From contig CAXXJJ010000004.1 of the NCBI GenBank assembly GCA_963667015.2, forward strand, positions 3,808,001 through 3,872,000: a stretch of DNA of 64,000 nt, read 5' to 3'. Under the pieces are notes generated by a model. It was not told where the DNA came from, did not search any database, and saw nothing but the letters and a program-made list of their open reading frames with translations. Source of the stretch: Desulfatiglandales bacterium. Lineage in GTDB: Bacteria > Desulfobacterota > DSM-4660 > Desulfatiglandales > HGW-15. The position numbers and the translations under genes were made by a program. Positions 7,711 to 36,296 of this stretch are shown one piece after another (position 1 is the stretch's first letter; the number at the start of each line of letters is the position of its first letter).

Positions 7711-7840
7711 ATTTGACATATTCTGTGATTTTTTTTTCTATTTAATAGACAATATGTCCTGATCAATCTAATTTACATGAAATATGACTTTAATGCTGCA
7801 AACAGCAAACTAAATATAGATAGTTTAAGATCAACCACCT

Positions 7841-7892
7841 AAAGGATTTTCCTATATATAATACAAAATTCATCGCTTATACCAGTTTGACA
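7841..7892 (+). promoter_or_regulatory. Shared operator/promoter, site 2 (porin-yedE operon)
   Basis: AAAGGATTTTCCTAT-N16-ATCGCTTATACCAGT-TTGACA. Confidence 0.8.
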
Positions 7893-8002
7893 TACCTAGC
7901 TTTCTTAACTAGATCTTATTTACTTTTAAGGATTAAACATAACTTAATCAAAAGAATTAAAAATCGATGAATGATTAATCTTTTTTCCTAAAGGAGGAGA
8001 AA

Positions 8003-9232: not shown

Positions 9233-9272
9233 ATATCTCTTCTGAAAAACTTGAAAGAAGGAAGGAGCTGTT

Positions 9273-10361: not shown

Positions 10362-10378
10362 GTAAAAAGGAGGATATT

Positions 10379-10597
10379 ATGGGAACTACAATAGATGCAA
10401 GAGGTTTGAGTTGTCCTCAGCCTGTACTTATGACGCTCGACAATATCAAGAAACAGAATAATGGAGAAATGGAGATTCTTGTTGATACCGAAACCTCAAA
10501 AGAAAATGTAAGCAGGGCTGCTACCAGCAAAGGGTGGCAGGTAACAGATGTAAAAGAAGAAGACGAGTGTTTCAGAATCTCAATAAGCAAGGGTTGA
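10379..10597 (+). CDS. TusA/SirA-like sulfur/selenium carrier protein
   Basis: IDARGLSCPQPV motif. Confidence 0.9.
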   Translation: MGTTIDARGLSCPQPVLMTLDNIKKQNNGEMEILVDTETSKENVSRAATSKGWQVTDVKEEDECFRISISKG

Positions 10598-10599
10598 TT

Positions 10600-11151
10600 T
10601 TGGGTATTTTAAAAGCTCTAAAGAAAAAAATATCAGGGCCTGAAAAAATAACAAAAAATGATCTGGGGCTCTTTGTCTTTGAAAACACCAGCGAGGTAAT
10701 CCGAGCAGAAAAGATATTAAAGGCGAATGGCTGGGAAATAAGAGTAATGGGTCCTCCGCCCGAGATAAGGAGCGGGTGTGACCTTGTTATTGAGTTCCCC
10801 CTGATAGAAGAACTCAACATCATCAGGCTGCTTAATGATAAAAATCTCACACCCATTGAGGTCGTTCCGGTTAACAGTCCACTGTTAAAACCGGTTAATC
10901 TATTTCAGGTAAAGGATTTCGGAAAGCACCTCATGGTGAGGGCAGCCAACATGAAACTGACCATTGACAAGGAAACCCTGATGATAGTCAATATATCCGG
11001 AGGGGGCTGCCCTGACGTCCCCTATCTGGCCCACGAGATGGTGGGAAAAAATTTATCAGACGCCCCCGATCCGGAAGATATCGGGCATACCCTGTGCGGG
11101 TATGCCCTTAAACTCGCCTATGAGGAGATAAAAAAACAATGCTTGCAGTAG
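10600..11151 (+). CDS. DUF3343-domain putative Se/S carrier protein
   Basis: VIRAEKILK, PPPEIRSGCD, SGGGCPDVP, TLCGY; probable TTG start at 10600. Confidence 0.7.
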   Translation: MGILKALKKKISGPEKITKNDLGLFVFENTSEVIRAEKILKANGWEIRVMGPPPEIRSGCDLVIEFPLIEELNIIRLLNDKNLTPIEVVPVNSPLLKPVNLFQVKDFGKHLMVRAANMKLTIDKETLMIVNISGGGCPDVPYLAHEMVGKNLSDAPDPEDIGHTLCGYALKLAYEEIKKQCLQ

Positions 11152-12002
11152 TGGGGACTGTCCCGATAAAGGGTTTTCCTCTTGTAGCAGGAGAAGTGAC
11201 CCTTGAGGATTATTCTATTGTTATAGAAGGACACAAGGTTCCGGTAAACCGCGGCACCCCGGCATTGATAGGGGCATCAATAGAAACCGCCCGGGTAAAG
11301 GGCGATGATAAGATGTTCGCATTTCTTGTGGGGGATATCGGGCTTGGAGACGGAAGCAGGAAACTTTATAAATATCTTTCCGAAAATTTAAGCAAATATG
11401 ATTTTGATGTGATTACCTTTCATTATCTTCAGCCTGATACTGACTGGCATAACAGGGTCCTGTTTTCTTTGGAAGATATGAAAAAGAGACCGTTTCTTAT
11501 TGCTGATGCAGGATTTATGTATGCAGCAAAAATGAGCGGGCAGGCTTCTGAATATGACCTTTTTACCCCGGATGCAGGAGAACTGGCCTTTCTTGCAGAT
11601 GAAGAAGCCCCTCATCCCTTTTATACAAGGGGATTTATCCTCCACGAGGACAATAATACCCCGGACCTGATAAGCCGCGCCTACAGCCATGATAATGCGG
11701 CAAAATATCTCCTGGTAAAAGGAAAAAAAGATTATATTGCAAATAACAAAGGGATTATAGGCCATGTTGAAGAACCCTCGGAAGAGACAATGGAGGCAAT
11801 AGGCGGAACAGGCGATACCCTGACCGGTATAGTCTCTTCCCTTATAGCATCAGGCATGGAAACAGTTGAGGCATCCATATCAGCGGCCAGGATAAACAGG
11901 CTGGCAGGTCATTATACAAAACCTGACCCGTCCACGCAGATCATGGATATCATCAGAAATATTTCCTCTTCCGCAGAGACGGCCGATCGGGCAAAGGTAT
12001 AA
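11139..12002 (+). CDS. Ribokinase-fold, NAD(P)H-hydrate dehydratase-like protein
   Basis: IADAG, FTPDAGEL, LLVKG, IGGTGDTLTG. Confidence 0.72.
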   Translation: MLAVVGTVPIKGFPLVAGEVTLEDYSIVIEGHKVPVNRGTPALIGASIETARVKGDDKMFAFLVGDIGLGDGSRKLYKYLSENLSKYDFDVITFHYLQPDTDWHNRVLFSLEDMKKRPFLIADAGFMYAAKMSGQASEYDLFTPDAGELAFLADEEAPHPFYTRGFILHEDNNTPDLISRAYSHDNAAKYLLVKGKKDYIANNKGIIGHVEEPSEETMEAIGGTGDTLTGIVSSLIASGMETVEASISAARINRLAGHYTKPDPSTQIMDIIRNISSSAETADRAKV

Positions 12003-19970: not shown

Positions 19971-20022
19971 ATCGTTTTATCCAATCCATCCCGAATTATT
20001 TATCGGAATATACAACTTGACA
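19971..20022 (+). promoter_or_regulatory. Shared operator/promoter, site 3 (Mo-hydroxylase operon)
   Basis: ATCGTTTTATCCAAT-N16-ATCGGAATATACAAC-TTGACA. Confidence 0.72.
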
Positions 20023-20088
20023 AATTTGTCGCCCATTTATAAGTAGAATATGTATCATTGAAATATTCAATTTTTTACCGGAGTTTTT

Positions 20089-20148
20089 ATGAAGATATTT
20101 TTCGGCTTTACCTGAGGGATTAACAGGTTATCTACCCGGGTCTGGTAG
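20089..20148 (+). CDS. Leader peptide 1, MKIFFGFT-U-GINRLSTRVW (UGA at 20113-20115)
   Basis: GGAG 5 nt before ATG; paralogue at 35760; hairpin CTA-C-CCGG-GT-CTGG-TAG at 20132-20148. Confidence 0.72.
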
Positions 20149-20350
20149 TCCAGGGAACGGCTGAAGAATAATTATCAACATCATATAACAATCAAAAAAC
20201 ACTTCTCCCTACCCCTGGCCTTTAATTTGTTGCCACCTGCAATCAGGGAAAACCTGTCCCTTCATACTATATTAGTACCAGGCAATAAATAAATCAGCGC
20301 AAAAAAACTCATCCCTTAATGTGCGAAATCGCCAGAAAGGAAGGTTAAAA

Positions 20351-20851
20351 ATGAAATATGTCAAGGTCAGCGCAAGAGTCGAACGCCGTATCAAATCTCT
20401 TGAACAGTCCGACAAAGCTGGAAAGATAATAGCAAAAAAGGCTGAAAGCATTATTGAAGATATAAAATCGGGCGCCACGGCTGAACACCGGGAACAAAAA
20501 GGCATGTTTACAAAATACGGAGAGAAAAGGATCAAGTATTGCAGGAAATATGATTTCGGATGCGGCTATCGCATGATTACCCTGCAACAGGACTCAACGA
20601 TTCTGGTTCCCTTTTTAGGCACCCATGACGAATGTCACCGATGGCTGGAAACCAATAATAAATCAAAACATATCGCTGCAGGAAACGGAACGGTTGTTTC
20701 TGTTCAATATGAAAGACAGGATGAGGAAGATTCCCCCTGTGATGAGATTCCTGAGCTATTTATGGATGAAACCCCACTGGACATAAGCGAACAGGATTTA
20801 CGGGTTGTGTTTCGCGGTCTGGTAGAGGGCGCAAAGAGGAGATCAAGGTAA
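20351..20851 (+). CDS. Hypothetical protein, possibly RelE-like fold
   Basis: RBS GGAAGG; GYRMITL..FLGTHDEC. Confidence 0.6.
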   Translation: MKYVKVSARVERRIKSLEQSDKAGKIIAKKAESIIEDIKSGATAEHREQKGMFTKYGEKRIKYCRKYDFGCGYRMITLQQDSTILVPFLGTHDECHRWLETNNKSKHIAAGNGTVVSVQYERQDEEDSPCDEIPELFMDETPLDISEQDLRVVFRGLVEGAKRRSR

Positions 20852-20861
20852 GAGACCGATT

Positions 20862-21911
20862 ATGACCATGGCATCACAGTGGAAAAACGAATATAAAATT
20901 CTGAAAAACTATATTAAATCAAATCCGGAAATCTCAATTGGTATGTACGAAACCTCCATACCTGAGGATTTTCGCGGGAAATTTTACGCACTCTTTGACA
21001 ATGTGCGAAAGGCCTTCGTTGAGTCATGGGTCAGCTCATTTGATCTCGATTTTCATTCCCTTGGAAAAAACTTTATTGAAGCGGAAAAGACAATCGCCCA
21101 AAGCTTAAACCTCAAGCATATGGATTTACCGGTTGATCTGGCCAGTTTTCTGCATAACCCGGAAAAAGGCATGATGCGTCTTCTATATAATCGCCTTTTT
21201 GAGCTTATTCAGGGTAAAATAGCAGAAGCTGACTTTGAGAAGATGGCTGAAGAGGACCTCAACCCGAGCGCCTACAATTTTTTCCGGCTGGGTTATGAGC
21301 AGTGGGCCGCTGTTTCCATCCTGCTGTTGCTTGAGCCGGATGAAATCCATGGTGTCAGCCTTGATGATGATTATAATCTCTGTATATCGGAACTGAATCA
21401 GATTACTTTCGGAAAACAGTATCATCACCCTGCCAAGCGTATCCCTGAATTTATTATTCACTCAAAAAGACTGGAGAGTTATATAGCCTTTAAAATGCCC
21501 CTGGCAACGTCTGTGGAGTTTTACTGTCTTCCGCCGGAAATTCCCACAAAGAGAATACTGAGAGATCGTACAGGAGATACGTCTCAGGTCCTTGGGTCCA
21601 GAATGCTCTTTCTGGCTGTTGTACCGGACCTGAAAAAACTGCCGGTATTTGCCGATTTACATGAGCGGACAATATGCGGGCCTGATTTAACTTTAGAATT
21701 TTTAACGGGGTATGAGCTCTCTGACCCGGCAGCCCTCCAGAAGGTTCAAACGCATGTGGAAATTATGAAACCACCCCTTGGGGGAAATATAGTGCTTGTT
21801 GACAATAACCCGGATACTGTGCCGGATAAAAGGGAAACAGGTATGGATATATTTTCAGTAAGGCTTGATCAGTCAGGATTACAACCAATTATAGATAAAT
21901 TAGCTAATTAA
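20862..21911 (+). CDS. Hypothetical protein
   Basis: 349-aa ORF inside the operon; no recognised motif. Confidence 0.7.
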   Translation: MTMASQWKNEYKILKNYIKSNPEISIGMYETSIPEDFRGKFYALFDNVRKAFVESWVSSFDLDFHSLGKNFIEAEKTIAQSLNLKHMDLPVDLASFLHNPEKGMMRLLYNRLFELIQGKIAEADFEKMAEEDLNPSAYNFFRLGYEQWAAVSILLLLEPDEIHGVSLDDDYNLCISELNQITFGKQYHHPAKRIPEFIIHSKRLESYIAFKMPLATSVEFYCLPPEIPTKRILRDRTGDTSQVLGSRMLFLAVVPDLKKLPVFADLHERTICGPDLTLEFLTGYELSDPAALQKVQTHVEIMKPPLGGNIVLVDNNPDTVPDKRETGMDIFSVRLDQSGLQPIIDKLAN

Positions 21912-21943
21912 CCTATTACCCATTATACTTCAGGAGGAAAAAA

Positions 21944-22663
21944 ATGGCTGATGAAAAAACCAACGTTAACCGCAGAAGCTTTCTTAAGAATGCGGGCGTC
22001 ATCATCGGCGGCAGCGCTATCGGAGCCGCGGGTATGACTTTAAGACCTGAAATGGCACAGGCCGCAGACGCTGTTAAATCAGTGCCAAAAACCGTTACAC
22101 AGTTCCGTTGCCCGGTGTGTAATAAAAACTTCAGCAGCTTTGCTGAATTGAAGCATCATTTTCAGACCGATCACCCGGAAAATGTTATGCCCACCACCAC
22201 AAAGCTCAATATCAACGGAGAGGATTGCGAGGTCCTGATAGAGCCCCACTGGACTCTTCAGCGTACACTCCAGTTCAAGCTGGGCCTGAGCGGCGCCAAA
22301 CACATGTGCGGCCGGGGTGCATGCGGGTCATGTACTGTAATCATGGATGGCAGGGCAATCCTGTCATGTACTACTCTGGCAGTTGAGTGTGAAGGAAAAG
22401 CAATCCAGACCGTAGAAGGTATTGCGGCTGATCCCAAATGGAGACCCCTCATTGATTCTTACTGTAAGTGGGATGCCATGCAGTGCGGTTACTGTACACC
22501 CGGGATGCTGGTTTCCGCGAAAAACCTTCTTGATAAAACACCCAATCCTACAGCGGAAGACTGTAAACAGGCCCTCGCTGGCAACCTGTGCAGCTGCGGC
22601 ACATATCACCGACACCCCACAGCTATTTTGGAAGCTGCCCAGACAATAAAAGGAGGTGCATAA
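21944..22663 (+). CDS. Molybdenum hydroxylase small (2Fe-2S) subunit with Tat signal and C2H2 finger
   Basis: NRRSFLK; CPVC..HFQTDH; CGRGACGSC, QCGYCTPG, GNLCSC. Confidence 0.9.
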   Translation: MADEKTNVNRRSFLKNAGVIIGGSAIGAAGMTLRPEMAQAADAVKSVPKTVTQFRCPVCNKNFSSFAELKHHFQTDHPENVMPTTTKLNINGEDCEVLIEPHWTLQRTLQFKLGLSGAKHMCGRGACGSCTVIMDGRAILSCTTLAVECEGKAIQTVEGIAADPKWRPLIDSYCKWDAMQCGYCTPGMLVSAKNLLDKTPNPTAEDCKQALAGNLCSCGTYHRHPTAILEAAQTIKGGA

Positions 22664-22664
22664 C

Positions 22665-25022
22665 ATGGCAGATTTAACTGTAAACGGAGACAGAAAAGAA
22701 TTCAAGGTAGTAGGGAAACCACATCTGCCCGGTAAACTGTCATGGGCAGTAGCAACCGGTGTGGCAAAATTCGGAGCAGACTATGTGATTCCGGATATGG
22801 TTGAAGCAAAATTCATGCGCAGCCCCTATGCCCATGCCAAGATAAAAAGCTATAACCTGAAAAAGGCCCTGGCTGTTCCAGGTGTTGTGGACATAGTCAC
22901 ATATGACGATCCGGATATGCAGAAATTTAAACTCAGCGGCCTTATGGGCGGTTCACCATATCCTTTTCTTGACAGTGTTGCCCATGAGGAAAACGGGGTA
23001 GTCGGATTTATAGTCGTTGCGGAAAACGAGGATATCTGCGAAGAGGTGTTAAGGCAGATTGACGTGGAATGGGAAGAACTGCCAAATGTAACTGACATTA
23101 AAAAAGGAAGAGAGAATGATGCCCCGGTAATACGTCCCGAGGATCGAAGCGGCCCCGGTGGATTCAGCAGAGGACCCAGCAATAATCCGCCTAAAAAGGG
23201 AAATGTCGCCTTTTCCAATCAGAACCAGGGTGATGTGGAACAGGGTTTTAAAGAGGCTGACTACATTGTTGAGTACGACCTTAATATGCCTACATACGCA
23301 TCAGCCTCACCAAATCCTCACGGATCAGTAGCGTGGTGGTTTGACGATCCCTACCTGGGCAGGGACAATATCCACATAGAAGGCGCTGTCTGGCATGCCA
23401 GCGGCGGTAAAAATGCAATCGCGCAGCTTTACGGCCTGCCTCCGGAAAAGACGGTACAGGAAGGTCTCTTCCAGGGCGGCAAATACTGCGACTGGACAAT
23501 ACGCAGATCACAGAAAATCACTCCCTTTCTTTCAAAAAGGGTGGGAAGGCCTGTACGCTGTATAAACGAACGCAAGGACACCTTTGACTTTATGGTCTCC
23601 CAGCGTTTTATGCACATGAAGGTCGGATTTAAAAAGGACGGCACAATAACCGCCTTTGATGACTTCTCAATAGCTGACGGCGGAACCCCGGGCAATTCAT
23701 TCTTCGGCACCTCGGGCGACCAGGGCTACAGCCCATACATTGGCACAAAATGTAAGAACATAAGACAGAATATGGATATTGTAGACAGCAACCGCGGTCT
23801 TATGGCCTTCAGCTCACAGTTCTGTCCCTTTAACTGGGATTCAGTCACTATGGCAATACATATGATTGCCGAAAAACTCGGAAAAGACCCCATTGATATC
23901 GCAAGAATCAATCTTCACGGCCCTGACGGTCAGGATGACAACAGACCTGTTCCAAGCTTTGACGCATGCATTGAAGCCGGAAAAAAAATGATGAACTGGA
24001 AATGGCATAAAAACGGCGCAAAGAGGCTTAAAGACGGAAGACTCCACGGCGCCGGCTTCAGATATCAGATGTGCCCTAGACATTCAATGGGTTCGGATTT
24101 TCACGCTGTACTCGAGCTTCGGGACGGTGTAGTGCACCTGCCGATACAGGGCCCCCATGCAGGAGTATTTTCCGTTGAAGGCGTTGCCATGATTGCGGCT
24201 GAAGAACTCGGCCTCAGGTTCGAGGATATCAGCATTGATTACGATCCCAATGCAATGTTCGTATCCATCAGCGGAGGGGCAGACGGGCTTGTAAATACCG
24301 GATGGGTTTTAAAACAATGCGCTCACAAATTAAGGAAGGAAATTTTTGAGGCAGCTATTGCCGAGGCCGAAAAACCTGCCCCCATGGGCTTCGGCTTTGG
24401 ACCACCTCGAAAGGCTGCTCCAAATCCGTTGAAGGGCAAAAAACCCGAAGACCTGGATATAATAGACGGAATGATCGTGCTTAAGTCTGACAACACAAAA
24501 GGAGTACCGCTTAAGAGCCTTACATCAAATGTATATGCGACATTTGCCGGCTGTGCGCCTAATCCAGTATGGCCAAGCAAGTACGATCTTTTAAACACCC
24601 TGTACTGTGAAGTAGCCGTGGATGAAGAAACCGGTGAAGTAGAAGTCCTGAGATACGAAGCGGCTGTTGACTCCGGCAAGGTAATAAGGCTTACCTCCCT
24701 TGAAAGTCAGCTTAACCAGGTTGCGATCTTCAGCCAGGGATGCCAGCTCTATGAGGACTATTTCTATGATCCTAAAACAGGTATTAAACTCAACCATAAT
24801 TATATTGAGTACAAAAAAGCGGGTATGCTGGATGTAACGGACGTTAAGGAGCCGGAATTGATAGAGACCCGCGCCGGCAACGGGGTATACGGTGCAAATG
24901 GCATAAGCCATTCAATGGCGAACACGCACCTTATTATCTGTGCTATCTACAACGCCATTGGCAAATGGGTTGATCCGCCTGCTACACCGGACAAGGTTCT
25001 CGCGGCACTGGGCAAGATATAA
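22665..25022 (+). CDS. Xanthine dehydrogenase-family molybdopterin-binding subunit
   Basis: RSPYAHAKI, EVAVDEETGEV, IYNAIG..PATPDKVL. Confidence 0.88.
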   Translation: MADLTVNGDRKEFKVVGKPHLPGKLSWAVATGVAKFGADYVIPDMVEAKFMRSPYAHAKIKSYNLKKALAVPGVVDIVTYDDPDMQKFKLSGLMGGSPYPFLDSVAHEENGVVGFIVVAENEDICEEVLRQIDVEWEELPNVTDIKKGRENDAPVIRPEDRSGPGGFSRGPSNNPPKKGNVAFSNQNQGDVEQGFKEADYIVEYDLNMPTYASASPNPHGSVAWWFDDPYLGRDNIHIEGAVWHASGGKNAIAQLYGLPPEKTVQEGLFQGGKYCDWTIRRSQKITPFLSKRVGRPVRCINERKDTFDFMVSQRFMHMKVGFKKDGTITAFDDFSIADGGTPGNSFFGTSGDQGYSPYIGTKCKNIRQNMDIVDSNRGLMAFSSQFCPFNWDSVTMAIHMIAEKLGKDPIDIARINLHGPDGQDDNRPVPSFDACIEAGKKMMNWKWHKNGAKRLKDGRLHGAGFRYQMCPRHSMGSDFHAVLELRDGVVHLPIQGPHAGVFSVEGVAMIAAEELGLRFEDISIDYDPNAMFVSISGGADGLVNTGWVLKQCAHKLRKEIFEAAIAEAEKPAPMGFGFGPPRKAAPNPLKGKKPEDLDIIDGMIVLKSDNTKGVPLKSLTSNVYATFAGCAPNPVWPSKYDLLNTLYCEVAVDEETGEVEVLRYEAAVDSGKVIRLTSLESQLNQVAIFSQGCQLYEDYFYDPKTGIKLNHNYIEYKKAGMLDVTDVKEPELIETRAGNGVYGANGISHSMANTHLIICAIYNAIGKWVDPPATPDKVLAALGKI

Positions 25023-25105
25023 TAAAAGCAAGGTTCAAGGTTTAAGGCTTAAGGTTCAGGGTAAAGGCCTTAAATCTAAACCAAAAAGCTAACAAGGAGA
25101 AAAAA

Positions 25106-26082
25106 ATGAAGCCATTTAATCATACAAATGCAACATCAATTGCAGAAATCAAAACAGCCCTTGCCGACGGTAAAACTACGCTTATTGCAGGCGGGACTGA
25201 TCTATTAGGGACACTCAAGGATAATATCCTTCGCGACTACCCTTCTACAGTAATTAATATTAAAACCGTTCCCGGGCTTGATTATATCAAGGAAGAAAAG
25301 GGAATACTCAAAATAGGAGCAACAACACGTCTGGCAGATATTGCGGCTGATCCCACTGTGCAGAAGAAATACACTGCACTGGCCCAGGCAGCGTCACGTG
25401 TAGCTTCACCCCATATCCGGGACATGGGTACCATAGCTGGAAATATTGCACAGCTTCACAGGTGCTGGTATTTTCGCAAACCGGAAAACCGCTTTGACTG
25501 TAAACGAAAGGGAGGATCAACATGCTTTGCCATGAGCGGTGACAACCGTTACCACTCAATCTTTGGTGCAGAAGGCGGGTGCCTTGCGGTTCATCCCAGT
25601 GATACAGCTCCCGCACTTATAGCACTCAACGCAAAGATAGTTACGGACAGCAGGACAATTGAGGCGGATAATTTTTTTGAGGTAAAACAGCCTGGGAATA
25701 CGGTTCTTGCGAAGGATGAAATAATCACTGAAATTCAGATCCCTGAGCCTCCAAAGGGCTGTAAAAGTGCATTTATCAAATTTGCCTCGCAGGGAAGAGC
25801 GTCCGTAAATCCATTGACTTCCCCATTGTAAACTGTGCGGTAATGGTCGGTGGCAAAGAACCAAGGATTTGTCTGAACGCCGTTGCACCCAGGCCTTATC
25901 GTGCAACAAAGGCAGAAGAAGCCATCGCAGGGAAGAGCGTTAAAAAGCTCAATGAAAAGCTGGCTGATGCAGCAGGGGAGGCGGCTGTTTCCGAGGTAAA
26001 ATCATTTCCCAGTGCAGCCCAGTTTAAAAAACAGATAGCTAAAACCATTGTAAAACGGGCAATTCTTATGGCGACAGCCTGA
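25106..26082 (+). pseudogene. FAD-binding subunit of the Mo hydroxylase, frameshifted near 25787-25802
   Basis: IAGGTDL, IRDMGTIAGN, HPSDTAPAL; the expected KFA-x-RKSIDFPIVNCAV continues in another frame. Confidence 0.8.
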
Positions 26083-27935: not shown

Positions 27936-27987
27936 ACCGGCTTTTCCGGTACTACATAGTCTTTTTATCGATATTTCCAGTTTGACA
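27936..27987 (+). promoter_or_regulatory. Shared operator/promoter, site 4 (UshA-like cytochrome)
   Basis: ACCGGCTTTTCCGGT-N16-ATCGATATTTCCAGT-TTGACA. Confidence 0.8.
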
Positions 27988-28246: not shown

Positions 28247-29605
28247 ATGAAGAAAATATCAGTTTATATCCTTATTCCACTGCTTGCGGCAGTCATCCTT
28301 TCAACCTTATCTCATACAGAAGATTCAAATGCGGCTGATAACCCGGAGATCACCATTGTCTACAGCAGTAATGTTCTGGGTTATTATCAGCCATGCGGCT
28401 GCAGTGAAGGCGAACAGCTTGGCGGATTGTACAAAAGGTCCACATACCTTAACAATTTTAGAAAAGAACATGGCGAGGTTATCATAGTCGATTCCGGTGA
28501 TCTGCTAAATGAGAATGAAGATCTTTCCGACAAAGTACTTGAATCGGCAAAACTTAAAGCTAAGCTCATAGCTCAGATATACAATACAACAGGAATCGAT
28601 GCAGTGGCTGTCGGTGAACTGGACCTGGTTTTAGGTATTGATTTTCTTAAAGAGCTGCAGGGAAAATATAATTTCCCTTTCATTTCCGCCAACCTGGTTG
28701 ATGAGAAGAACATCCCCTTTTTTAAGCCCTACATTATTAAAAAAATAAACGGAAAGAATGTTGGTATATTCGGGCTTATAGGAAGCAGTTCCGAGATGGG
28801 TTCGAAAATAGAAAAGCTTACAGGCGGTAAAGCAAAGGTTCTGGATACTTTAAAGACCGCAGAAACCATTATTAATGAACTGTCAGGGAAAGTCGATTAC
28901 ATGGTTGCAGTTGCTCATCAGCGAACCAACAGAAACTGGGTAATGGCAAAAAAGGTACCGGGAATAGATTTGATTGTCGTAGGTCATGATAAGCTCAAAA
29001 CAGAGAAACCAAGTAAGGCCGGTAATTCCCTTATTGTACAGGCAGGAGAAAAGGCCCAGCACCTTGGAGTGCTGGAGGTTACAATAAATGATTCTCAAAC
29101 TGAGCATAACATGCTGGTCCCCCTTGGCAACAAAATAGAAGATGATCAGAAGATCAAGGATATGATAGGTGAGTATGAACACAGTGTCGCATCTATGTAT
29201 AATAACCAGGTTCAGGAAAATGCCGCCACTAAAAATGTTGTATCAAGAGTTGCTGTGTGTGAAGCCTGCCATGAAGATCAGGTAAAGGCATGGGACGCCA
29301 CGGACCATGCCCATGCATACGATACGCTGGTCCAAAAATCAAAGCAGCTTGACCCTGACTGCCTGAACTGTCACACAACCCGTTTCGAGCAGCCCGAAGG
29401 CTTTACTATGCAACTTAAGCAGATGGAACTGGCAAATGTTCAGTGCGAAAATTGTCATGGGTTTGCAAAGGAACACCTGAATGACGGAACGCCGATTCCT
29501 GTGGCAAAGCCTGGTATGGATCTATGCCTTAAATGCCACAGCCCCTATCGGTCACCTGATTTTGAAAAGAATGCTGCTGAGATTTTTGAGAAAATAAAAC
29601 ACTAG
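28247..29605 (+). CDS. UshA-like metallophosphoesterase domain fused to a tetraheme cytochrome c; Cys form (PCGCS)
   Basis: QPCGCS..LGG, VDSGDL, ISANL, IVVGH; CEACH, CLNCH, CENCH, CLKCH. Confidence 0.85.
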   Translation: MKKISVYILIPLLAAVILSTLSHTEDSNAADNPEITIVYSSNVLGYYQPCGCSEGEQLGGLYKRSTYLNNFRKEHGEVIIVDSGDLLNENEDLSDKVLESAKLKAKLIAQIYNTTGIDAVAVGELDLVLGIDFLKELQGKYNFPFISANLVDEKNIPFFKPYIIKKINGKNVGIFGLIGSSSEMGSKIEKLTGGKAKVLDTLKTAETIINELSGKVDYMVAVAHQRTNRNWVMAKKVPGIDLIVVGHDKLKTEKPSKAGNSLIVQAGEKAQHLGVLEVTINDSQTEHNMLVPLGNKIEDDQKIKDMIGEYEHSVASMYNNQVQENAATKNVVSRVAVCEACHEDQVKAWDATDHAHAYDTLVQKSKQLDPDCLNCHTTRFEQPEGFTMQLKQMELANVQCENCHGFAKEHLNDGTPIPVAKPGMDLCLKCHSPYRSPDFEKNAAEIFEKIKH

Positions 29606-29668: not shown

Positions 29669-30808
29669 CTATAGCATTTCGATATAGGCCTCTATTCTAA
29701 CCCGGAGCTGTCCGGTATCGCTCTCGGAATAATCCGTTTCCAGGTGCAGCGACGGAACGCCCAGGAGCTCCTGGACCAGCTCATCCACCATAAAGGCTTC
29801 AATGTTGTAGGTGTGGCAGGCCTGCCAGGTGAGATCGATTACGCCGTCAACAGAGAAATCCCTGATTATTTCGGAAAGGAGATCAAACCTGCCATTATTG
29901 GGACTCATAACCGAGCAGGGGGTCCTAAGATACTGTTCGGCCAGGGCATCCATGGGGTCTTTATCCTCTGCGACCTGGAAGGCCTGCTTGTAACCGGAAC
30001 AGCTCTCAAAGGCAACCACGTCTGCCCCGATCTGCTCAACTATCCTGATAACCTTTTCACTCCCGATTCCGACCGGAACACCGGTAAGGAGAATTCTTTT
30101 TTTATTGTTGCCGCTTTCCACCGGGGAGGCTGTTTCATGGTGCTTTATAACTTCCTGCATCAGATCGATACCTTTTTCCTTGTTCGCCAGAAACCCAACC
30201 TTTAAAGAGGACCTCGAGCAGTTGCGTAAACCTGGAAGCGGCGCGGGTATTGGCTTTATTGATAGGTCCATCAGGGCCTTTCTTGTCATGCGTTCCCTGT
30301 TCATCAGCCCTATGGCATCCTTTAGTTTATCCTGAGTGTAATCGTTACACCGGTCAGTTGTTCCACAATGGCCTTGAAATGATGCAGCTCATTTTTCCAT
30401 GCTGCAAGCGCCAGTGTCATCATCCTGCAGTGAAGGCAATTGCATCACGTGGGTTGTCTTGGTTCGGTTCAACAGTTCGAACATCTTCTTTTTACCGTCG
30501 CAGGTAGTGTCACCTATGATAATATCGGAAAAGGCGAAAAAAGGGCAGGTATCAGTAATTGCAAATCCATAGCTCGATTTGATCAGCGGGCATAGGTTGC
30601 GCGGAAGCACATCTTCGGCTGCGGTTATGGGGTTGTTGCTGGTGCCGCACAGGGGCAATGGAATAGCGCCGGCGGCAACGGCTATCTCCATGGGAGAATA
30701 GAGGCAGTAGTATCCTACAGCGGCTCTGCCGTCCTTTTTCATCTGTTCAATATCCTCAGGATTCTGATCCATGGCCTGCTGGAGTCTTGTCATCAGTTTT
30801 TCAGTCAT
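29669..30808 (-). pseudogene. Second DCCP-like reductase, frameshifted around 30300-30400
   Basis: N-part YCLYSP, LCPLIKSSYG, TTCDGKKK; C-part ESCSG, WQACHTY, ETDYSESD in a separate ORF. Confidence 0.82.
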
Positions 30809-30901
30809 ATCTGCACCTTTCGCAACCGGTTATTTTCAAGAGAAATTTGTTAACTGATTTTATGAATAAGTCAGATGGAATTTTAATTGAGGAGAAAGGA
30901 A

Positions 30902-30953
30902 TGTCAAACAAGAGTTTCCGATCTATTTAAGTTATCTCATAGACACACCCTAT
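30902..30953 (-). promoter_or_regulatory. Shared operator/promoter, site 5 (second DCCP)
   Basis: ATAGGGTGTGTCTAT-N16-ATCGGAAACTCTTGT-TTGACA. Confidence 0.8.
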
Positions 30954-31334
30954 TTATCTATGCCATTTAACGGTTTATTTTCTTTCCTAACAGCCTTCTT
31001 TGATTTTTTCCTTCCCACAATAACATTCCTACACGTAACACCCAGTATCTTTTTATTCTGCATTGCAGAAACAGTCCCACCCTGAAACCTCTAGGATGAC
31101 ATTGGAGCCTGCATGACATGAGAAACTGCCCATCCCGCTTTTCTCATCAAATTACCCTAATTATTTATAAGGGTGGCCGCTTCACAAGTTGTTGTCTTGT
31201 GAAAGGGGCAGTTATCATGTTATTAGATAAAATAGTTTCAACCTTATAATAGGACATGTGCTGTTTTTCCATACCAAAGGTGCATGTAAACTGCGCGAAC
31301 AACGGCATCCCAAATATCATTAAGGAGTAAAAAT

Positions 31335-31883
31335 ATGAAAACCGCTATTATCCTTCTTATTGCAGTCTTGTCATTCTGTTGTATTCCTGAAGCATCAGCA
31401 CTTGACAGGATTATCATTACAAATAACAAAGAACTTATCACCTTTGATGACATCATAGCTGAGTATAAAGGATTAAAAAGAGATTTGGAATCTGAGCGTA
31501 ATAATTTTGAAGAAACAGACGCATATATAAATCGAATAAAAAAGAGTAAAGAAAAATTATCTTCGTTTTTAAATACAGTATATGAAGGGCAATTCAATTT
31601 AGATAATGTTTCAATGGATTGGAGCAGTAATCGATTAATTACAACAAGGGAACTTCCCGTTGAATTTACAGGGGGAGAAGATGGATGCAAAGAACTTTTA
31701 ATATCAACAGTCTTGCCACATCTAAGGCTTAGAGAACTCATCACCTTTAAAAAACATATTAGCTACTTTATCACTTTTAAGTTAAATGAAAATTGCGTCA
31801 TGCAATTCATAAATATAAAGGTGGTTTATAGAGGAGAGGAAATCCTTAATGAGATGAGTATACAGGAAAAGGGACATCTTTAA
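31335..31883 (+). CDS. Hypothetical exported protein
   Basis: RBS AAGGAG, signal peptide, AT-rich. Confidence 0.65.
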   Translation: MKTAIILLIAVLSFCCIPEASALDRIIITNNKELITFDDIIAEYKGLKRDLESERNNFEETDAYINRIKKSKEKLSSFLNTVYEGQFNLDNVSMDWSSNRLITTRELPVEFTGGEDGCKELLISTVLPHLRLRELITFKKHISYFITFKLNENCVMQFINIKVVYRGEEILNEMSIQEKGHL

Positions 31884-31942
31884 TCATTTAAAGATGCCCC
31901 TGTTTATATTCAACAGGGAAAGATCCCTCGCCGGGATGGATC

Positions 31943-32290
31943 TTAGTTTAAAAGGTTTTCTGACTTCAGGCGGCCAATGATTTCCGTTGTGGATTTAAGC
32001 CGATCCATGGTGTAAAAGTGAAGTCCGGGAACCCCTTTTTCAAGCAATCCCCGACACTGCTCAACGGCAAAGTCAATTCCCAGATCCAGTACAGCATCTT
32101 TATCTTCCGGGTCCACTGCATCGAGTTTTTGCTGAAGTGCTTCAGGTATAGACGACCTGCAGACTTTGGACAGCATCTGGGTCATCTTTACCGTATACAC
32201 CGGCATAATGCCCGGAATGATCGGAACATTGATCCCCATAGCCCGGCATTTATCGACAAAATTAAAGTAGTAGTCATTGTCGTAGCAATT
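31943..32290 (-). pseudogene. metF: C-terminal remnant of methylenetetrahydrofolate reductase
   Basis: YDNDYY, VPIIPGIMP, GLHFYTMDR; N-terminal part missing. Confidence 0.8.
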
Positions 32291-32367
32291 AGGAGACACA
32301 GGTAAAAAGGCAACTTAAACTGGCTGACCTCATGCCTTTTTACTCCTGCTCTTACTCCAACAATTAA

Positions 32368-32721
32368 TCACGATATGGCATTCCTTAAGCTCTGCCTGTA
32401 ATAATAACCCTCAACCGTTTTAAAAAATGTTTCCACATTATCAAGGTCAACGTTGGGAGCCAGGTCGCATCCTGAAGAAATTACAAAATTATTAAACATG
32501 GCACATTTATTTAAAAGTTTGAGAGTTTCAATCCTTACAAAATCCGAATTACTGGAATTAAAAACCTTGGCAGGACTTATATTCCCCATCACAAGATAAT
32601 TCCTTGGCAGATGTTCAAGCATCGGAAGTATATCCACAGAATCCCCCGGGAATGTTAAGATGGGTAATGCTTTTTTTCTTTCTGTATATATAATCTGTTC
32701 AATCCAATTGTACATATTCAT
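32368..32721 (-). pseudogene. Internally deleted UroD/MtaA-family methyltransferase
   Basis: N-terminal LPILTFPG joined to C-terminal VMGNISP and ISSGCDL; only 117 aa. Confidence 0.7.
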
Positions 32722-32794
32722 AATGCTGTCTTCCTTTAATATTTTTGATTCTGTTTTGCTGATATCAGCATTTAAAAAATTTGAAATTCAGAAG

Positions 32795-32810
32795 TGCACG
32801 GCCCGTGCCA
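32795..32810 (-). promoter_or_regulatory. Sigma-54 -24/-12 promoter
   Basis: TGGCACGGGCCGTGCA. Confidence 0.55.
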
Positions 32811-33019
32811 TGATATGCAGTAAGGATATTTAATACCTGTTCAGGGAGGACATGGTTCACGCTGATTAAAGCCAGATAATTCAATGGGATAACAACGCGA
32901 TAAAAAATTGGATCAATCAAAAAAGAAAGATCGGCAACAGGTTTGAAGTCTTGGTGTGTATTGATTTTTTACACTGTGGAAAATTTGGAAAGAATATAAA
33001 TTGAGCCCTCTACTGATTT

Positions 33020-33241
33020 TTAATCAACACCTAATGCCTCTAAATCAGCAAGATCCTTTTTTCTTCCTACTGATTTTTTGTTTTGTATGAGTCGGTCTAA
33101 TCCAATATAGCTTACAGGTATATCTCCAGTATATCTTGGCGCTCCATGAAATGCCAGGGCATAGCCTCCAACTATCAAATATTCAACTTTATGTGCGTTC
33201 AGTAACTCTAGCAACTCTTTGAAGTCTGTCTGAATTTCCAT
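33020..33241 (-). pseudogene. Internally deleted nucleotidyltransferase-family gene
   Basis: YLIVGGYALAFHGAPRYTGD joined to LIQNKKSVGRKKDLADL. Confidence 0.65.
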
Positions 33242-33371
33242 GTAACTGCCTTCTTAAGTATTCAACTGCAAGTATTCTTTCGTTTGGATCTTTACTAAGC
33301 CAGTATTTAAGATCCTCACGGATGGAATCATCTTTATTCATGTCTGCTATTTTTACTACTTTGGCTATCAT
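33189..33371 (-). CDS. Small hypothetical protein, probable partner of the nucleotidyltransferase
   Basis: DLKYWLSKDPNERILAVEYLR...RLQRVARV; overlaps the downstream gene. Confidence 0.55.
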   Translation of the reverse strand: MIAKVVKIADMNKDDSIREDLKYWLSKDPNERILAVEYLRRQLHGNSDRLQRVARVTERT

Positions 33372-33480
33372 ATAAATTGACCTGTTTTTATTTAACATCA
33401 GTTTGTTTTCGCAACATTATAAAACAAGTTATTAATAAAGTTAAGTCTATTTTAAATCCGTTTCTATTTGTACCCCTTGA

Positions 33481-33603
33481 TTACTCCTTTTCCAGTCGAA
33501 CAGCACAGGCCTTGAATTCCGCGGTTTTGGAAACCGGATCAAATGCCGGATTGGTTATCCAGTTAGCGCACCCTTCCCTGAAATGAAAATCCATCCAGAC
33601 CAG
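33481..33603 (-). pseudogene. C-terminal remnant of a formate dehydrogenase alpha subunit
   Basis: LVWMDFHFREGCANWITNPAFDPVSKTAEFKACAVRLEKE-stop, no start; absent from the ORF track. Confidence 0.75.
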
Positions 33604-33643
33604 TGCGGAGACAGTGACTGGGAGACTGGGATGCCTTTACTTA

Positions 33644-33697
33644 TTTACCCTGTTAAATGCTGTTTCGCAGCCAGCTTTGCGGATTTAACAGGATAAA
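33644..33697. repeat. Palindromic element related to the hairpin at 35641-35670
   Basis: TACCCTGTTAAAT...TAACAGG arms at both sites. Confidence 0.55.
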
Positions 33698-33744
33698 CTT
33701 GCCATTCCTATTCTAACATCATTTAAAAAAATTCAATAAAATTT

Positions 33745-34185
33745 TTAGGCGGCAATTTTCTGTTTCCATCCATATACCGGCCCCAGTGTTCTGATTATTT
33801 CAGTAAATTTTTTGCATGTTTCAGCAAACTGAGGTCCCATGGAAGCAGAGTTATAATAGATATTGACCCTTTCAGGCTCTATTCCTATTTCTTTGAATAA
33901 TGTCTTTGCATATTTAATAAGGGTTGTGGCCTTTTCATTCCCTGACACATAATGACAGTCACCTATCAGGCAGCCTGATAGGAATACTCCGTCCGCGCCA
34001 TTCTCTATAGCCTGCAGCAGGTTGATAAGGGCGATTCTTCCGGTGCATGGAATTTTTATTATTTTAACATTGGCCGGATATCCCAGCCTCAGTGATCCTG
34101 CCAGATCTGCAGCCGCATATGAGCACCACTGGCAGCAGAAGGCTATTATATTCGGCTCAAAATCGTTAATATTTTTCCCGTTCAA
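33745..34185 (-). CDS. mvhD: MvhD-like hydrogenase iron-sulfur subunit, Cys form
   Basis: IIAFCCQWCSYAAADLAG, PCTGRI, GADGV..GCLIGDCHY; probable TTG start at 34185. Confidence 0.88.
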   Translation of the reverse strand: MNGKNINDFEPNIIAFCCQWCSYAAADLAGSLRLGYPANVKIIKIPCTGRIALINLLQAIENGADGVFLSGCLIGDCHYVSGNEKATTLIKYAKTLFKEIGIEPERVNIYYNSASMGPQFAETCKKFTEIIRTLGPVYGWKQKIAA

Positions 34186-34208
34186 CTTATAAATCCTTTG
34201 TATTAAAA

Positions 34209-35492
34209 TTAAAGCCCAAACTCTGCAAGATCCGGCCCCAGGTATGTACGCTCGTTTTCTCCGAGCATTCCCATTGCAAGGCATATTATTGTCCATAGAT
34301 GAACAACATGATAGTCTCCACCAAAATGCTCTCCAATATCATGTATCTGGGCGTGGCAGTTATGGCATGGTACTGCCACATAATTTGCCCCTGTCGCAAT
34401 TATCTGATCAAATTTTATTTTTCCATAGGACTGTCTCTCATCCCTGAAACCGGCCTGAAGTGAGCCTCCTCCACCACCGCAGCAGAAGTTGTTCGACCTG
34501 TTGGGAGTAATGTCCACGAAATTTTCTTCGCCCACAACGGACTTTACTACAAACCGAAGGTCCTCGGCCATTGGATCTCCTATGGACTTCCTTACAATAT
34601 TACATGGGTCCTGGACCGTAAACTTGATCTTGAGGTCTTTGTTCCACTCGGAGTTGACTTTGAGTTTCCCCTCCCTGATCCATTTTGCATAAAGCTGCAC
34701 AACGCTTATGAATTCAAAATTGTGAGGGATATTGAATTTTTTAAGTGCTGCCCATACAGCATAAAATGAGTGCCCGCATTCGGTATTTACAAAATATTTG
34801 CAGCCCAGTTTATCTATATGCTCTGCCTGTGCCCGGACTATATACTCCCAGCTTTCATCATCGGCCAGGAACATGCAGTAGTTTTCTCCGGCCCACATAT
34901 CGGAATAGTATGTCCAGTCTGCCCCTGCTTTATGAAGTATCTTCCACAAAGGAAGGAGTTCATCAGGTTCGGTAACAGGCTCCCTGGAATTCTGGTTAAA
35001 GCAGTACATGGCCCCTTCCCTGTCTATTGAGGCCTGAAAATCCTCAAATCCTTCCTGCTCACGAAGTTCTTCGGCCAGGTCTTCAATTACAAATTTATAA
35101 TCATCAAGAGGAACACCCATTGCACCTCCCCTGGACTTTACATGATGATCACAGGAGCCGAGTATTCCCTTTGGTCTTTCCTCCCTGGGCCACTGGGACC
35201 GGAGATAATAGATGATATTTGGAATATCGATATCCATGGGGCATGCATGCTGGCACCGTTTGCACATTGTACATACCCATAACCATGGATTGCGCTCAAC
35301 CTCTTCATCCAGACCAAAAGCAATCATTCTGAGCAGTTTTCTCGGGTCCATGTCCATCTGGCCTGTAGCCGGACAACCCCCTGAACATGTACCGCAGGTC
35401 AGGCAGAGATTGAGATTTGCTCCATTAAGCAAATGATTGATTTCTTTTCGGATATTTCCTTTTGCTTTTGTTAAATCTATAGCTTCGCTCAT
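34209..35492 (-). CDS. HdrC/HdrD-like Fe-S oxidoreductase (CCG domain)
   Basis: CLTCGTCSGGCP, CTMCKRCQHACP, ECGH, QDPC, CCGGGGG, PCHNC. Confidence 0.85.
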   Translation of the reverse strand: MSEAIDLTKAKGNIRKEINHLLNGANLNLCLTCGTCSGGCPATGQMDMDPRKLLRMIAFGLDEEVERNPWLWVCTMCKRCQHACPMDIDIPNIIYYLRSQWPREERPKGILGSCDHHVKSRGGAMGVPLDDYKFVIEDLAEELREQEGFEDFQASIDREGAMYCFNQNSREPVTEPDELLPLWKILHKAGADWTYYSDMWAGENYCMFLADDESWEYIVRAQAEHIDKLGCKYFVNTECGHSFYAVWAALKKFNIPHNFEFISVVQLYAKWIREGKLKVNSEWNKDLKIKFTVQDPCNIVRKSIGDPMAEDLRFVVKSVVGEENFVDITPNRSNNFCCGGGGGSLQAGFRDERQSYGKIKFDQIIATGANYVAVPCHNCHAQIHDIGEHFGGDYHVVHLWTIICLAMGMLGENERTYLGPDLAEFGL

Positions 35493-35676
35493 ACTTTAAT
35501 CTCCATTTTGATAAGGGATATGTAATTTTTCTGCTCAAACTGCACTCCTGGATCAGGGTCAGTCTGCCACAGTAAAAATTAACCTCGGGATAGTCGAAAA
35601 TTGACAACAGGCTGGTAACAAGTAATCAACTGCATGGGGATACCCTGTTAAATAGAAAAATAACAGGGTATTAGTA

Positions 35677-35760
35677 TCAGTTTTCGACCATGACCAAATG
35701 ACGACCAGTCCAGGTGTCATATGATGCAACAATTCATGTAAAGCCGAAAACCTTTTTCAT
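35677..35760 (-). CDS. Leader peptide 2, MKKVFGFT-U-IVASYDTWTGRHLVMVEN (UGA at 35736-35734)
   Basis: Paralogue of leader 1; hairpin ATGAC-ACC-TGGACT-GGT-C-GTCAT starts 13 nt after UGA; ends TGA-TAC-TAA. Confidence 0.72.
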
Positions 35761-35822
35761 TTGGATGCGCCTTCTTCCGGTTAAGTGGATAGAGTATAAA
35801 GATTAAGCAATACACATTTATA

Positions 35823-35874
35823 AGTCAAACAGGAAAACCCGATATAGAAAACATTTCATTAAACATATTCCGAT
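35823..35874 (-). promoter_or_regulatory. Shared operator/promoter, site 6 (hdrD-like/mvhD operon)
   Basis: ATCGGAATATGTTTA-N16-ATCGGGTTTTCCTGT-TTGACT. Confidence 0.77.
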
Positions 35875-36020: not shown

Positions 36021-36296
36021 TTACCTCCACACCGGTGCATCGGGGATGATTTTCATCAGACAGATATCGTCCCCCATCTTGACACTCTTTAAAAGTGCAA
36101 CTTCGACATTGCATTGGAAGGCTCTTTCAAAAAGGACTTTACTGTATCCCGCGGAGCACTGACACCATGTGTCGTTGTCCTCGGATGCTGCCTCCCCGTT
36201 CTCCCCGTATACAATTGCCTCTGCTATTTCAGCATTACTTACCGCGGCAATACTATATGAAATTATCTGTTCCTGAATTTTTCTTATATTAAACAT
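36021..36296 (-). pseudogene. Short Cys-containing hypothetical gene, probably internally deleted
   Basis: TWCQCSAGY..FE..VKMGDDIC resembles the C-terminus of a longer family. Confidence 0.4.

Follow-up and report, generated by a model that had tools for sequence, protein, structure and literature searches.

Why should an eight-codon open reading frame (ORF) that ends in UGA stand, in two versions, in leaders ahead of genes in one bacterial genome? The question is raised by leader 2, which precedes the gene for an HdrD-like iron-sulfur protein on the minus strand of a 64,000-nucleotide (nt) stretch of a Desulfatiglandales bacterium (GCA_963667015.2, contig CAXXJJ010000004.1; "the window" is this whole stretch). 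Its mini-ORF reads MKKVFGFT-UGA, and a sister copy, leader 1, lies on the plus strand of the same window. We find by comparison with other genomes that leader 2 is a divergent member, or subclass, of a family of FGFT-UGA leaders, apparently an undescribed, phylum-wide element for sensing selenocysteine (Sec). We consider it probable that in this family the ribosome gauges the capacity to decode Sec and thereby switches on genes for selenium starvation. The sensing half of this proposal is well supported by comparative evidence; the output step we infer.

The mini-ORF and its UGA are conserved in Desulfobacterota

How widespread is the element? The leader pattern, allowing at most two mismatches, matches twice in the window and not once in 100 shuffles. 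In the 209 genomes of the order, with the reversed pattern as control, ATG-N9-TTYGGNTTYACNTGA gave 86 matches in 67 genomes against a single control match, and a stricter leader pattern occurred in 8 of the 61 genomes of the family and never in the control. A wider scan of one genome per species across prokaryotes, using an ORF-plus-hairpin pattern that required no start codon, returned at least 117 leader loci. By record title, all matches listed come from Desulfobacterota, and the carriers among them include Desulfobacterales, NaphS2, Desulforhabdus, Syntrophobacteraceae, Dethiosulfatarculus sandiegensis, Desulfarculus, Desulfomonilaceae, Syntrophaceae and Desulfobacca. Almost every copy is built in the same way: a promoter motif (ATCGG repeated about 22 nt apart), AGGAG, the eight-codon ORF, a 16-nt spacer, the hairpin CTRCC-CGKGTYY-GGTAG, and then a segment (for example, CAGGGTCAGGCCGAAAAA) that can fold back to pair with TTTTTCGGCTTTACCTG. 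In one candidate, L084, the hairpin is missing and codon 2 is a stop, and we took it as a chance match.

Is the mini-ORF translated? A search of the 209 genomes for the hairpin alone (CTRCCCGKGTYYGGTAG) gave 47 matches and none in the control. Exact M-x3-FGFT-TGA frames coincide with 35 of them, and each of the other 12 has an in-frame ORF that ends in TGA 15–18 nt before the hairpin: (i) three begin with GTG, one of them with nine codons; (ii) six carry single-residue variants (FGFS, FAFT, LGFT twice, FSFT, SGFT); and (iii) three are 44-codon versions with an MxQFFGFT start and a TG[FY]T-TGA end. The hairpin-selected set comprises 46 distinct leaders. All of them stop with TGA, never TAA or TAG, and of the 184 sites per codon position in FGFT, 5 vary at the first position, 7 at the second and 31 at the third. 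Among the matches listed in the wider scan, a start codon lies eight codons before the stop in 111 of 117 (ATG 106, GTG 4, TTG 1). In 82 of them a Shine-Dalgarno-like word stands 3–16 nt ahead of the start, and in 95 the frame, once read through, continues for exactly 10 codons and closes at the UAG of GGUAG. Homologues have kept the ATG-to-UGA frame, the loss of which an earlier note on this DNA had named as a refutation. As far as comparison across genomes can show it, the mini-ORF is translated and its UGA matters.

In the 44-codon ORFs (L095, L097, L098), MxQFFGFT is followed by P.DSR...NEVGIR.N...VKS and then by TG[FY]T-TGA, with a normal hairpin behind; such ORFs seem to have expanded internally and kept both ends. 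In another genome (G014, contig C364) two leaders, L072 and L073, occupy opposite strands back to back, some 200 nt from each other, MYQDFGFT preceding selC-selB and MRRFFGFT pointing the other way.

A SECIS-like hairpin follows the UGA

What would decode this UGA? The prototype of the bacterial selenocysteine insertion sequence (SECIS) is that of E. coli fdhF. Like bacterial SECIS elements, FGFT-UGA leaders have a UGA at the base of a long helix and an apical hairpin with a loop G about 23–27 nt downstream; unlike the genes that carry such elements, they have an ORF of only eight codons and no conserved protein after the UGA. The source genome offers a comparison of its own. In its four HdrD-like and two MvhD selenoprotein genes, the UGA is followed by GUCC-UGGCA-GGAC or GGACC-UGGCA-GGUUC, and the loop GG lies 22–27 nt from the U of UGA. 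Both leaders have a hairpin at a fixed distance 3' of the in-frame UGA with loop G residues 24–27 nt from its U (ACC-UGGACU-GGU, GG at 25–26, in leader 2; CUACC-CGGGUCU-GGUAG, G at 25–27, in leader 1), so that the geometry is like that of SECIS elements. The leader 2 hairpin resembles the genome's own SECIS elements in loop and in distance from the UGA, as its earlier description as SECIS-like implied, and we predict that it is of the SelB type.

The source genome encodes SelB (635 amino acids) and one Sec-specific tRNA (tRNA-Sec). SelB (PF25461) was detected in 62 of the 67 leader-bearing genomes of the order; since it is near-ubiquitous there (174 of 209 genomes, 90 of 93 good ones), the co-occurrence of leader and SelB is a test of low power.

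Codons of the mini-ORF form a covarying helix

The bases of the FGF codons (segment 1), and with them the UGA, also pair with a segment beyond the hairpin (segment 2). For 83 aligned leaders (alignment A2), RNAalifold finds the long helix and the apical hairpin, and we took statistics on a 22-pair version of the helix. Standard pairs fill 86.6% of cells in the segment 1:segment 2 helix, against 32–57% with a slid partner; changes on both sides occur in 96 cells against 32–51; and the covariation score is 0.291 against at most 0.136, with none of 500 shuffles reaching the helix values. Third-position changes TTC/TTT are compensated in segment 2 (C-G in 59 leaders, U-A in 10), as are GGC/GGT changes (C-G in 61, U-A in 7, U-G in 9). 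Synonymous changes in the ORF thus find their counterpart across the helix, and the same bases are under coding and pairing constraint.

Segment 2 has a second potential partner, segment 3, a UUUUCAGCCUGG-like stretch at about +85..+105 that we counted on 45 main-class leaders (alignment A3). This helix is 81.3% paired against 33–59% when slid, with a covariation score of 0.203 against at most 0.122; as comparative evidence it is supportive but weaker than that for segment 1:segment 2. Overlapping helices 1:2 and 2:3, of the trp type, are found both in the folds of leader 2 and in the family. The covariance check that the earlier note had asked for, made here with RNAalifold and pair counts, comes out in favour of the family helices.

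Leader 2 is a divergent member of the family

Where does leader 2 stand? The family ORF (eight codons, M-x3-F-G-F-T, then TGA behind a Shine-Dalgarno sequence) is exact in leader 2, with a weak Shine-Dalgarno sequence, and the shared promoter motif ATCGGnnnTTCCnGTTTGAC is present as ATCGGGTTTTCCTGTTTGACT. All coordinates given earlier for leader 2 agree with the sequence (Table 1), and so do the spacings: 68 nt from the start of the -35 box to the ATG and 244 nt from the T of its TGA (35736) to the HdrD-like ATG (35492), with 72 and 238 nt for leader 1. A simple sigma-70 scan makes no call at this promoter because the -10 box is poor. Read through, the leader would be translated as MKKVFGFT*IVASYDTWTGRHLVMVEN*.

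In a 104-nt fold of leader 2, GUUUUCGGC pairs with GGUCGAAAAC, CAUGA (with the UGA) pairs with UCAUG, and the apical hairpin is enclosed, so that the pairing claimed for the FGF segment GUUUUCGGCU (35751-35742) with GGUCGAAAAC (35689-35680), around a hairpin with the loop UGGACU, exists in the fold. The minimum-energy fold of 321 nt pairs the GGUCGAAAAC segment with UCAAUUUUCGACUA instead, which is the alternative pairing that had also been claimed; this fold has a z score of -3.3, and 0 of 100 shuffles are as good.

Model R1, built without leader 2 or its orthologue L004, finds leader 2 with 34.6 bits (E 5e-7). Calling leader 2 a paralogue of leader 1 is fair, with the reservation that it is divergent, leader 1 scoring 86.5 bits. 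The view that both encode the same peptide stands in part: the K and T codons do differ synonymously, but leader 1 encodes MKIFFGFT, so that codons 3 and 4 differ. In place of the consensus hairpin (16 nt past the TGA), leader 2 and L004 have GACACC-UGGACU-GGUCGUC. L004 keeps the apical hairpin with loop and bulge changes, the 35670..35641 stem with a different loop length, and segment 3. A metagenome scan for this hairpin subclass (FGFT-TGA-N15-GACACCTGG) gave 0 loci; we find the subclass in the source genome and in one genome of the same genus (L004).

Leaders 1 and 2 are the only two real copies in the 7.19-Mb genome. Three further TTYGGNTTYACNTGA matches have no start codon and no hairpin and were set aside as chance, the best other match to model R1 (20.9 bits, E 0.37) is not convincing, and selB and selC of this genome have no leader upstream.

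Table 1. Parts of the two leaders and the genes behind leader 2, in window coordinates.
Feature	Position	Strand	Remark
Leader 2 promoter region ATCGGGTTTTCCTGTTTGACT	35843..35823	-	holds the conserved upstream motif and the -35 box
Leader 2 -35 box TTGACT	35828..35823	-	
Leader 2 -10 candidate TAATCT	35805..35800	-	weak
Leader 2 Shine-Dalgarno-like AAGGCG	35773..35768	-	weak; aligned by model R1 to family AGGAG
Leader 2 mini-ORF ATGAAAAAGGTTTTCGGCTTTACATGA	35760..35734	-	ATG AAA AAG GTT TTC GGC TTT ACA TGA (MKKVFGFT-UGA)
Leader 2 helix P1, 5' strand	FGF codons; CAUGA 35738..35734	-	CAUGA lies within P1b
Leader 2 SECIS-like apical hairpin (fold)	35724..35694	-	loop UGGACU at 35712..35707
Leader 2 segment 2, UCAUG + GUCGAAAAC	35693..35677	-	3' strand of P1b and P1
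Leader 2 second in-frame stop UGA	35679..35677	-	directly after segment 2; would be reached 18 codons past an inserted Sec
Leader 2 hairpin UACCCUGUUA / UAACAGGGUA	35670..35641	-	between segments 2 and 3
Leader 2 segment 3 UCAAUUUUCGACUA	35604..35591	-	imitates the FGF segment; alternative partner of segment 2
HdrD-like iron-sulfur protein, 427 amino acids	35492..34209	-	Fer4 + CCG (Pfam, NCBIfam); cysteine (Cys) isoform, C239 in NTECGH
MvhD/FlpD-like protein	34296..33745	-	Pfam FlpD; Cys isoform (C58 in CCQWCSY), whose actual start may be further downstream than 34296
Leader 1	20017..20170	+	canonical sister copy
Leader 1 -35 box TTGACA	20017..20022	+	
Leader 1 mini-ORF MKIFFGFT-UGA	20089..20115	+	238 nt before the ATG at 20351
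Leader 1 hairpin CTACCCGGGTCTGGTAG	20132..20148	+	pairing segment GGCTGAAGAA

Leaders precede selenium genes and Cys isoforms

Which genes do the leaders control? The first sizeable downstream ORFs of 73 of 87 leaders (78 proteins) were scanned with Pfam; the rest ran into a contig end, lacked a called ORF or had an ORF left out of the scan. A YedE-like transporter comes first behind 16 leaders, SelB and HGD-D/double-cubane reductases behind 12 each, HdrD-like proteins behind four, FlpD and NuoE/F-like proteins behind three each, and SelD, HdrA-like and UshA-like/cytochrome proteins behind two each. TusA, rhodanese, a porin, a TonB receptor, DUF169+ABC and a BcrAD activase follow one leader each, no family was found behind nine, and a phosphomutase stands behind one disrupted leader (L055). 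ARAGORN places tRNA-Sec on the same strand, 103–194 nt past the leader UGA, in 15 of the 87 leaders; tRNA-Sec also follows 3 of the 12 extra hairpin-only leaders and 18 of the 117 wider-scan loci among the matches listed. Several yedE leaders hold selC remnants.

The genes behind leader 2 are Cys isoforms of selenoproteins. Four HdrD-like paralogues in the source genome, 60–65% identical, have TGA at the Cys239 position, and two MvhD paralogues have TGA at the Cys58 position; these TGA-bearing paralogues have no leader, since the genome holds only the two. Leader-linked homologues elsewhere are Cys forms in 3 of 4 HdrD-like, 2 of 3 FlpD and 4 of 4 UshA-like proteins (PCGC), the last bearing the NCBI family name 'UshA-like (seleno)protein'. 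As the earlier note anticipated, Cys isoforms stand behind leader 2 itself, and downstream genes elsewhere are selenium genes and Cys isoforms. Targets that comprise uptake, Sec machinery and Cys back-ups argue that the leader turns genes on when Sec decoding fails, so that gene content supports the proposed sign of control, on when selenium is short.

An HGD-D Sec/Cys pair in the source genome was considered and rejected: the sole TGA-bearing paralogue (29669..30808) lies among gene fragments with its TGA poorly aligned, which probably reflects decay and not Sec.

A proposed ribosome-mediated sensor and its alternatives

What is the mechanism of sensing? When Sec-tRNASec and SelB are plentiful, the UGA would be read as Sec and the ribosome would reach the second stop, in or just after the hairpin and segment 2; the leader would then take its default fold, segment 1 with segment 2, and downstream expression would be low. 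When selenium is short, the ribosome would wait or terminate slowly at the UGA and cover the FGF codons, which would leave segment 2 free for segment 3 and allow transcription or expression to continue into the genes. The FGFT peptide probably slows release by release factor 2 (RF2) at the UGA. The genes set in this way would be ones on which a cell starved of selenium depends: in this window the HdrD-like and MvhD proteins in their Cys forms, and in other genomes selB, selD, the gene for tRNA-Sec and the transporter of the yedE type. In its most specific form the proposal is a natural recoding-event attenuator, in which UGA and SECIS read the supply of SelB and Sec-tRNASec and set tRNA-Sec, selB, selD, uptake and the Cys switch, FGFT antagonises RF2 so that waiting is the default, and Rho provides the output; for this full form we hold the case to be evenly balanced.

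Could the hairpin act alone, as an operator that binds SelB (a SECIS-like decoy as in the E. coli selAB leader), with no role for translation and with the AUG...UGA frame incidental or merely presenting the hairpin? Its loop and geometry are those of the SECIS elements of the source genome, and selB is among the commonest downstream genes, as autoregulation would have it. In the part of a 2025 review available to us, SelB stands among Rho's protein partners, with its effect given as unknown (PMC12360218). Such an operator would not account for the conservation of start codon, Shine-Dalgarno sequence, eight-codon length and UGA, for the codon-like third-position variation or for the 44-codon variants that stay in frame. 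In addition, the hairpin lies 100–500 nt from the regulated starts and can be followed by a tRNA gene, which makes direct occlusion of a ribosome-binding site, as reported for selAB, impossible. We regard this alternative as unlikely, though the best of those considered.

Alternatively, a transcription factor at the promoter could carry the selenium response, the leader being a stability or processing element (for example, the 5' leader of a tRNA-Sec precursor) or a sensor of RF2 activity. The motif ATCGGAAtTTCCaGTTTGACA, in which ATCGG often recurs some 22 nt further on, precedes most homologous leaders as well as leader 1 (20001..20022, +) and leader 2, and looks like a candidate binding site of a selenium-regulon transcription factor. 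It also stands before leaderless selenium-linked genes of the source genome: the double-cubane reductase (7679..7659, -) and the UshA-like gene (27967..27987, +) in the window, and a TusA-like gene on contig C4 near 2768153 (+). A transcription factor would leave unexplained both a SECIS-type hairpin at SECIS distance from an invariant UGA and a covarying helix that contains codons, and 72 of the 87 leaders are not adjacent to selC. Both layers can coexist, so that this would be an addition more than a replacement, and as a replacement we find it quite improbable.

Least of all do we credit a tiny selenoprotein gene, in which MKKVFGFT-U and 5 to 27 further residues would be a functional selenopeptide co-transcribed with selenium genes: an in-frame UGA with a SECIS-like hairpin is the signature of a selenoprotein gene and the N-terminal FGFT is conserved at the protein level, but the sequence after U is not conserved (an apparent STRVR/W is the hairpin read as codons), its length lies anywhere between 2 and 27 codons in the order and between 10 and 31 among the matches listed in the wider scan, its position is always a 5' leader behind a regulated promoter, and the helix of coding bases with a distal segment and its alternative partner would have no role.

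Several observations weigh against the ribosome-mediated sensor. The motif before leaderless genes means that a transcription factor could carry part or all of the selenium response, and the RNA helix, drawing on the FGFT codons as well, confounds part of their conservation. The covariation of segment 2:segment 3 is weak, with 19 of 500 shuffles reaching its score, and the best downstream duplex of segment 2 is modestly better than shuffled ones (mean z -0.75), the signal being clearer when pairs are counted by alignment column. At leader 2 itself, the 104-nt fold (-24.5 kcal/mol, z -1.1) is not better than shuffles, so that the weight of evidence lies in the comparison with other genomes, and the hairpin is unlike the family consensus and aligned by model R1 with low confidence. 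SelB, finally, was not detected in 5 of the 67 leader-bearing genomes: G028 (64% complete), G059 (83%), G116 (77%), G118 (96%) and G129 (95%). In a protein search of these five, all matches were of about 34% identity and covered the GTPase part, and we take them as EF-Tu-like proteins. Full tRNA-Sec genes (70–74 bits) are present in G118, G129 and G059, and the remaining two genomes are the 64% and 77% complete ones; the occurrence of leaders in genomes with Sec machinery holds to this extent.

Two leaders, L017 (G116) and L018 (G118), which come from genomes of one genus in which SelB was not detected, have a broken 3' arm of the hairpin (GGGCG and GGGGG instead of GGTAG), and their read-through frame runs 23 codons.

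The output step

How would the fold be turned into expression? A tRNA gene as first target implies that the output of the leader acts on the transcript and not on translation initiation alone. The 3:4 intrinsic terminator of trp-type attenuators was not found ahead of the first gene in either leader, nor a consistent hairpin with a U run before selC (15 loci). On average over 77 leaders, the region +60..+99 past the UGA is G-poor (G 9–10%, C/G about 3), and spacers linked to selC fold weakly (-0.7 to -8.9 kcal/mol in 10 of 15), features that resemble a Rho-loading site. The absence of an intrinsic terminator, together with a G-poor, unstructured spacer in most members, favours Rho-dependent termination, which is the most likely output and is least supported for leader 2. 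Three findings count against the proposal at this step: neither leader has a terminator-like site; leader 2 has no G-poor tract (C/G about 1); and in constrained folds of leader 2, with the ribosome site masked or not, nothing changes in the downstream hairpins or in the region where ribosomes would bind at hdrD. The same folds give no conformation-dependent change at the hdrD start, and on this ground we rejected sequestration of the ribosome-binding site for leader 2. What stands for the output of leader 2 is that, in the predicted folds, two alternative helices exist.

Relation to known systems

Is the element new? No curated Rfam 15 model matched the window at its gathering score, with chance-level snoRNA/miRNA matches (E 2.5 to 6) around the leaders, and no description of an FGFT-UGA leader was found in the full-text literature, subscription journals not being covered. 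We know of little on bacterial selenium sensing, or on the choice between selenoproteins and Cys forms, beyond HrsM of Methanococcus and the selAB leader of E. coli.

The trpL, hisL, pheL and thrL leaders are leader-peptide transcription attenuators of amino-acid operons. The FGFT-UGA leader would share with them a short translated ORF whose decoding speed is set by one charged tRNA, overlapping helices 1:2 versus 2:3, and targets that supply or replace the sensed amino acid. Unlike them, it would sense a single UGA that needs SelB and SECIS and not a run of sense codons; the competing event would be RF2 release, with no 3:4 terminator found; and its targets include the tRNA gene itself and Cys-isoform enzymes.

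By analogy, the closest precedents for the output are Rho attenuators that depend on an upstream ORF (uORF). One of them, tnaC, also ends in UGA. As the available part of the 2025 review lists them, they are tnaC-tnaAB, mgtL-mgtA, corL-corA, speFL and cruR-bfrG, with no selenium case among those given there (PMC12360218). According to the same part, Rho termination in these systems is decided by a ribosome at or near the uORF stop, or by uORF translation that refolds the leader (PMC12360218), to which the proposed leader would be alike, and most FGFT-UGA leaders have a G-poor, unstructured spacer after the ORF. Unlike in these systems, the signal would be Sec-tRNASec/SelB, in place of a metal ion or of a small molecule bound in the exit tunnel; the putative Rho site is some 60–100 nt past the UGA, which excludes direct shielding by the stalled ribosome; and we infer the role of Rho, to which the base composition of leader 2 lends no support.

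The E. coli selAB 5' leader reportedly holds a SECIS-like element through which SelB represses translation initiation, a finding ascribed to Thanbichler and Bock (2002). FGFT-UGA leaders would likewise place a predicted SelB-type hairpin outside a selenoprotein gene to tune Sec-machinery genes; unlike the selAB leader, which is not known to have a leader ORF or a UGA, they have a conserved mini-ORF with a UGA in frame, at a long distance from the genes that they would regulate. A case from inside a selenoprotein gene is fdhF(Sec) of Treponema primitia, where, according to the available part of the source, failure to decode the Sec UGA uncouples translation from transcription and alters transcript levels (PMC3892789). 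There the gene's own transcript is lowered when selenium is short, unlike the FGFT-UGA leader, a dedicated leader that would act on other genes and probably with the opposite sign. The same part has it that a rare-amino-acid attenuator has been engineered but not reported in nature (PMC3892789).

If the proposal is true, the leader is a direct, protein-free read-out of Sec-decoding capacity, conserved across a phylum of sulfate reducers and syntrophs. It would define a selenium-starvation regulon, with double-cubane reductases, the pair of 166- and 349-amino-acid proteins described below, porins and a TonB receptor as candidates, and would mark which paralogues are Cys back-ups. It would also be a natural part from which to build biosensors for selenium or Sec and with which to study the competition between SelB and RF2. 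The cultured carriers among the matches listed, Dethiosulfatarculus sandiegensis, Desulforhabdus sp. TSK, strain NaphS2 and Desulfatirhabdium butyrativorans, make direct testing possible.

Genes around the leaders

Behind leader 1 (20351..25831, +) lie proteins of 166 and 349 amino acids without a Pfam or NCBIfam match, and downstream of this pair a three-subunit molybdenum hydroxylase (Fer2_2, MoCoBD, FAD_binding_5). A similar ORF pair (about 168–170 and 348–357 amino acids) follows leaders L076 and L104, and an ORF of 166–172 amino acids follows L010 and L011; those of L010, L011 and L076 have no Pfam match. ORFs of this type behind leaders are new candidates for selenium-linked proteins.

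Downstream of the leader 2 operon (29669..33745, -) are genes that look decayed, namely URO-D (117 amino acids) and MTHFR (118 amino acids) fragments and the TGA-interrupted HGD-D gene, together with about 700 nt without ORFs; a DUF6144 fragment lies at 36021..36296 (-). On the plus strand, the UshA-like '(seleno)protein' at 28247..29605 (NF041198, 359 bits) is a Cys form (PCGC) with a fused domain like cytochrome c554. In four other genomes of this genus the orthologue has an MHHFFGFT-UGA leader (L075, L078, L080, L082); the copy in the window keeps the promoter motif only.

A selenium island (8003..12002, +) comprises an Opr-family porin (8003..9232), a putative selenium transporter of the YedE family (9273..10361; TIGR04112, 494 bits), a Se/S-carrier-like protein (10534..11151; PF11823) and a YjeF-C-like kinase (11139..12002). 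Upstream of it (7600..8000) are promoter-like motifs only and no FGFT leader. The start of the porin ORF (8003..8032, +), MNRFGFSKKW, resembles M-x-x-F-F-G-F-T, which may be due to chance or reflect a former leader that became joined to the gene.

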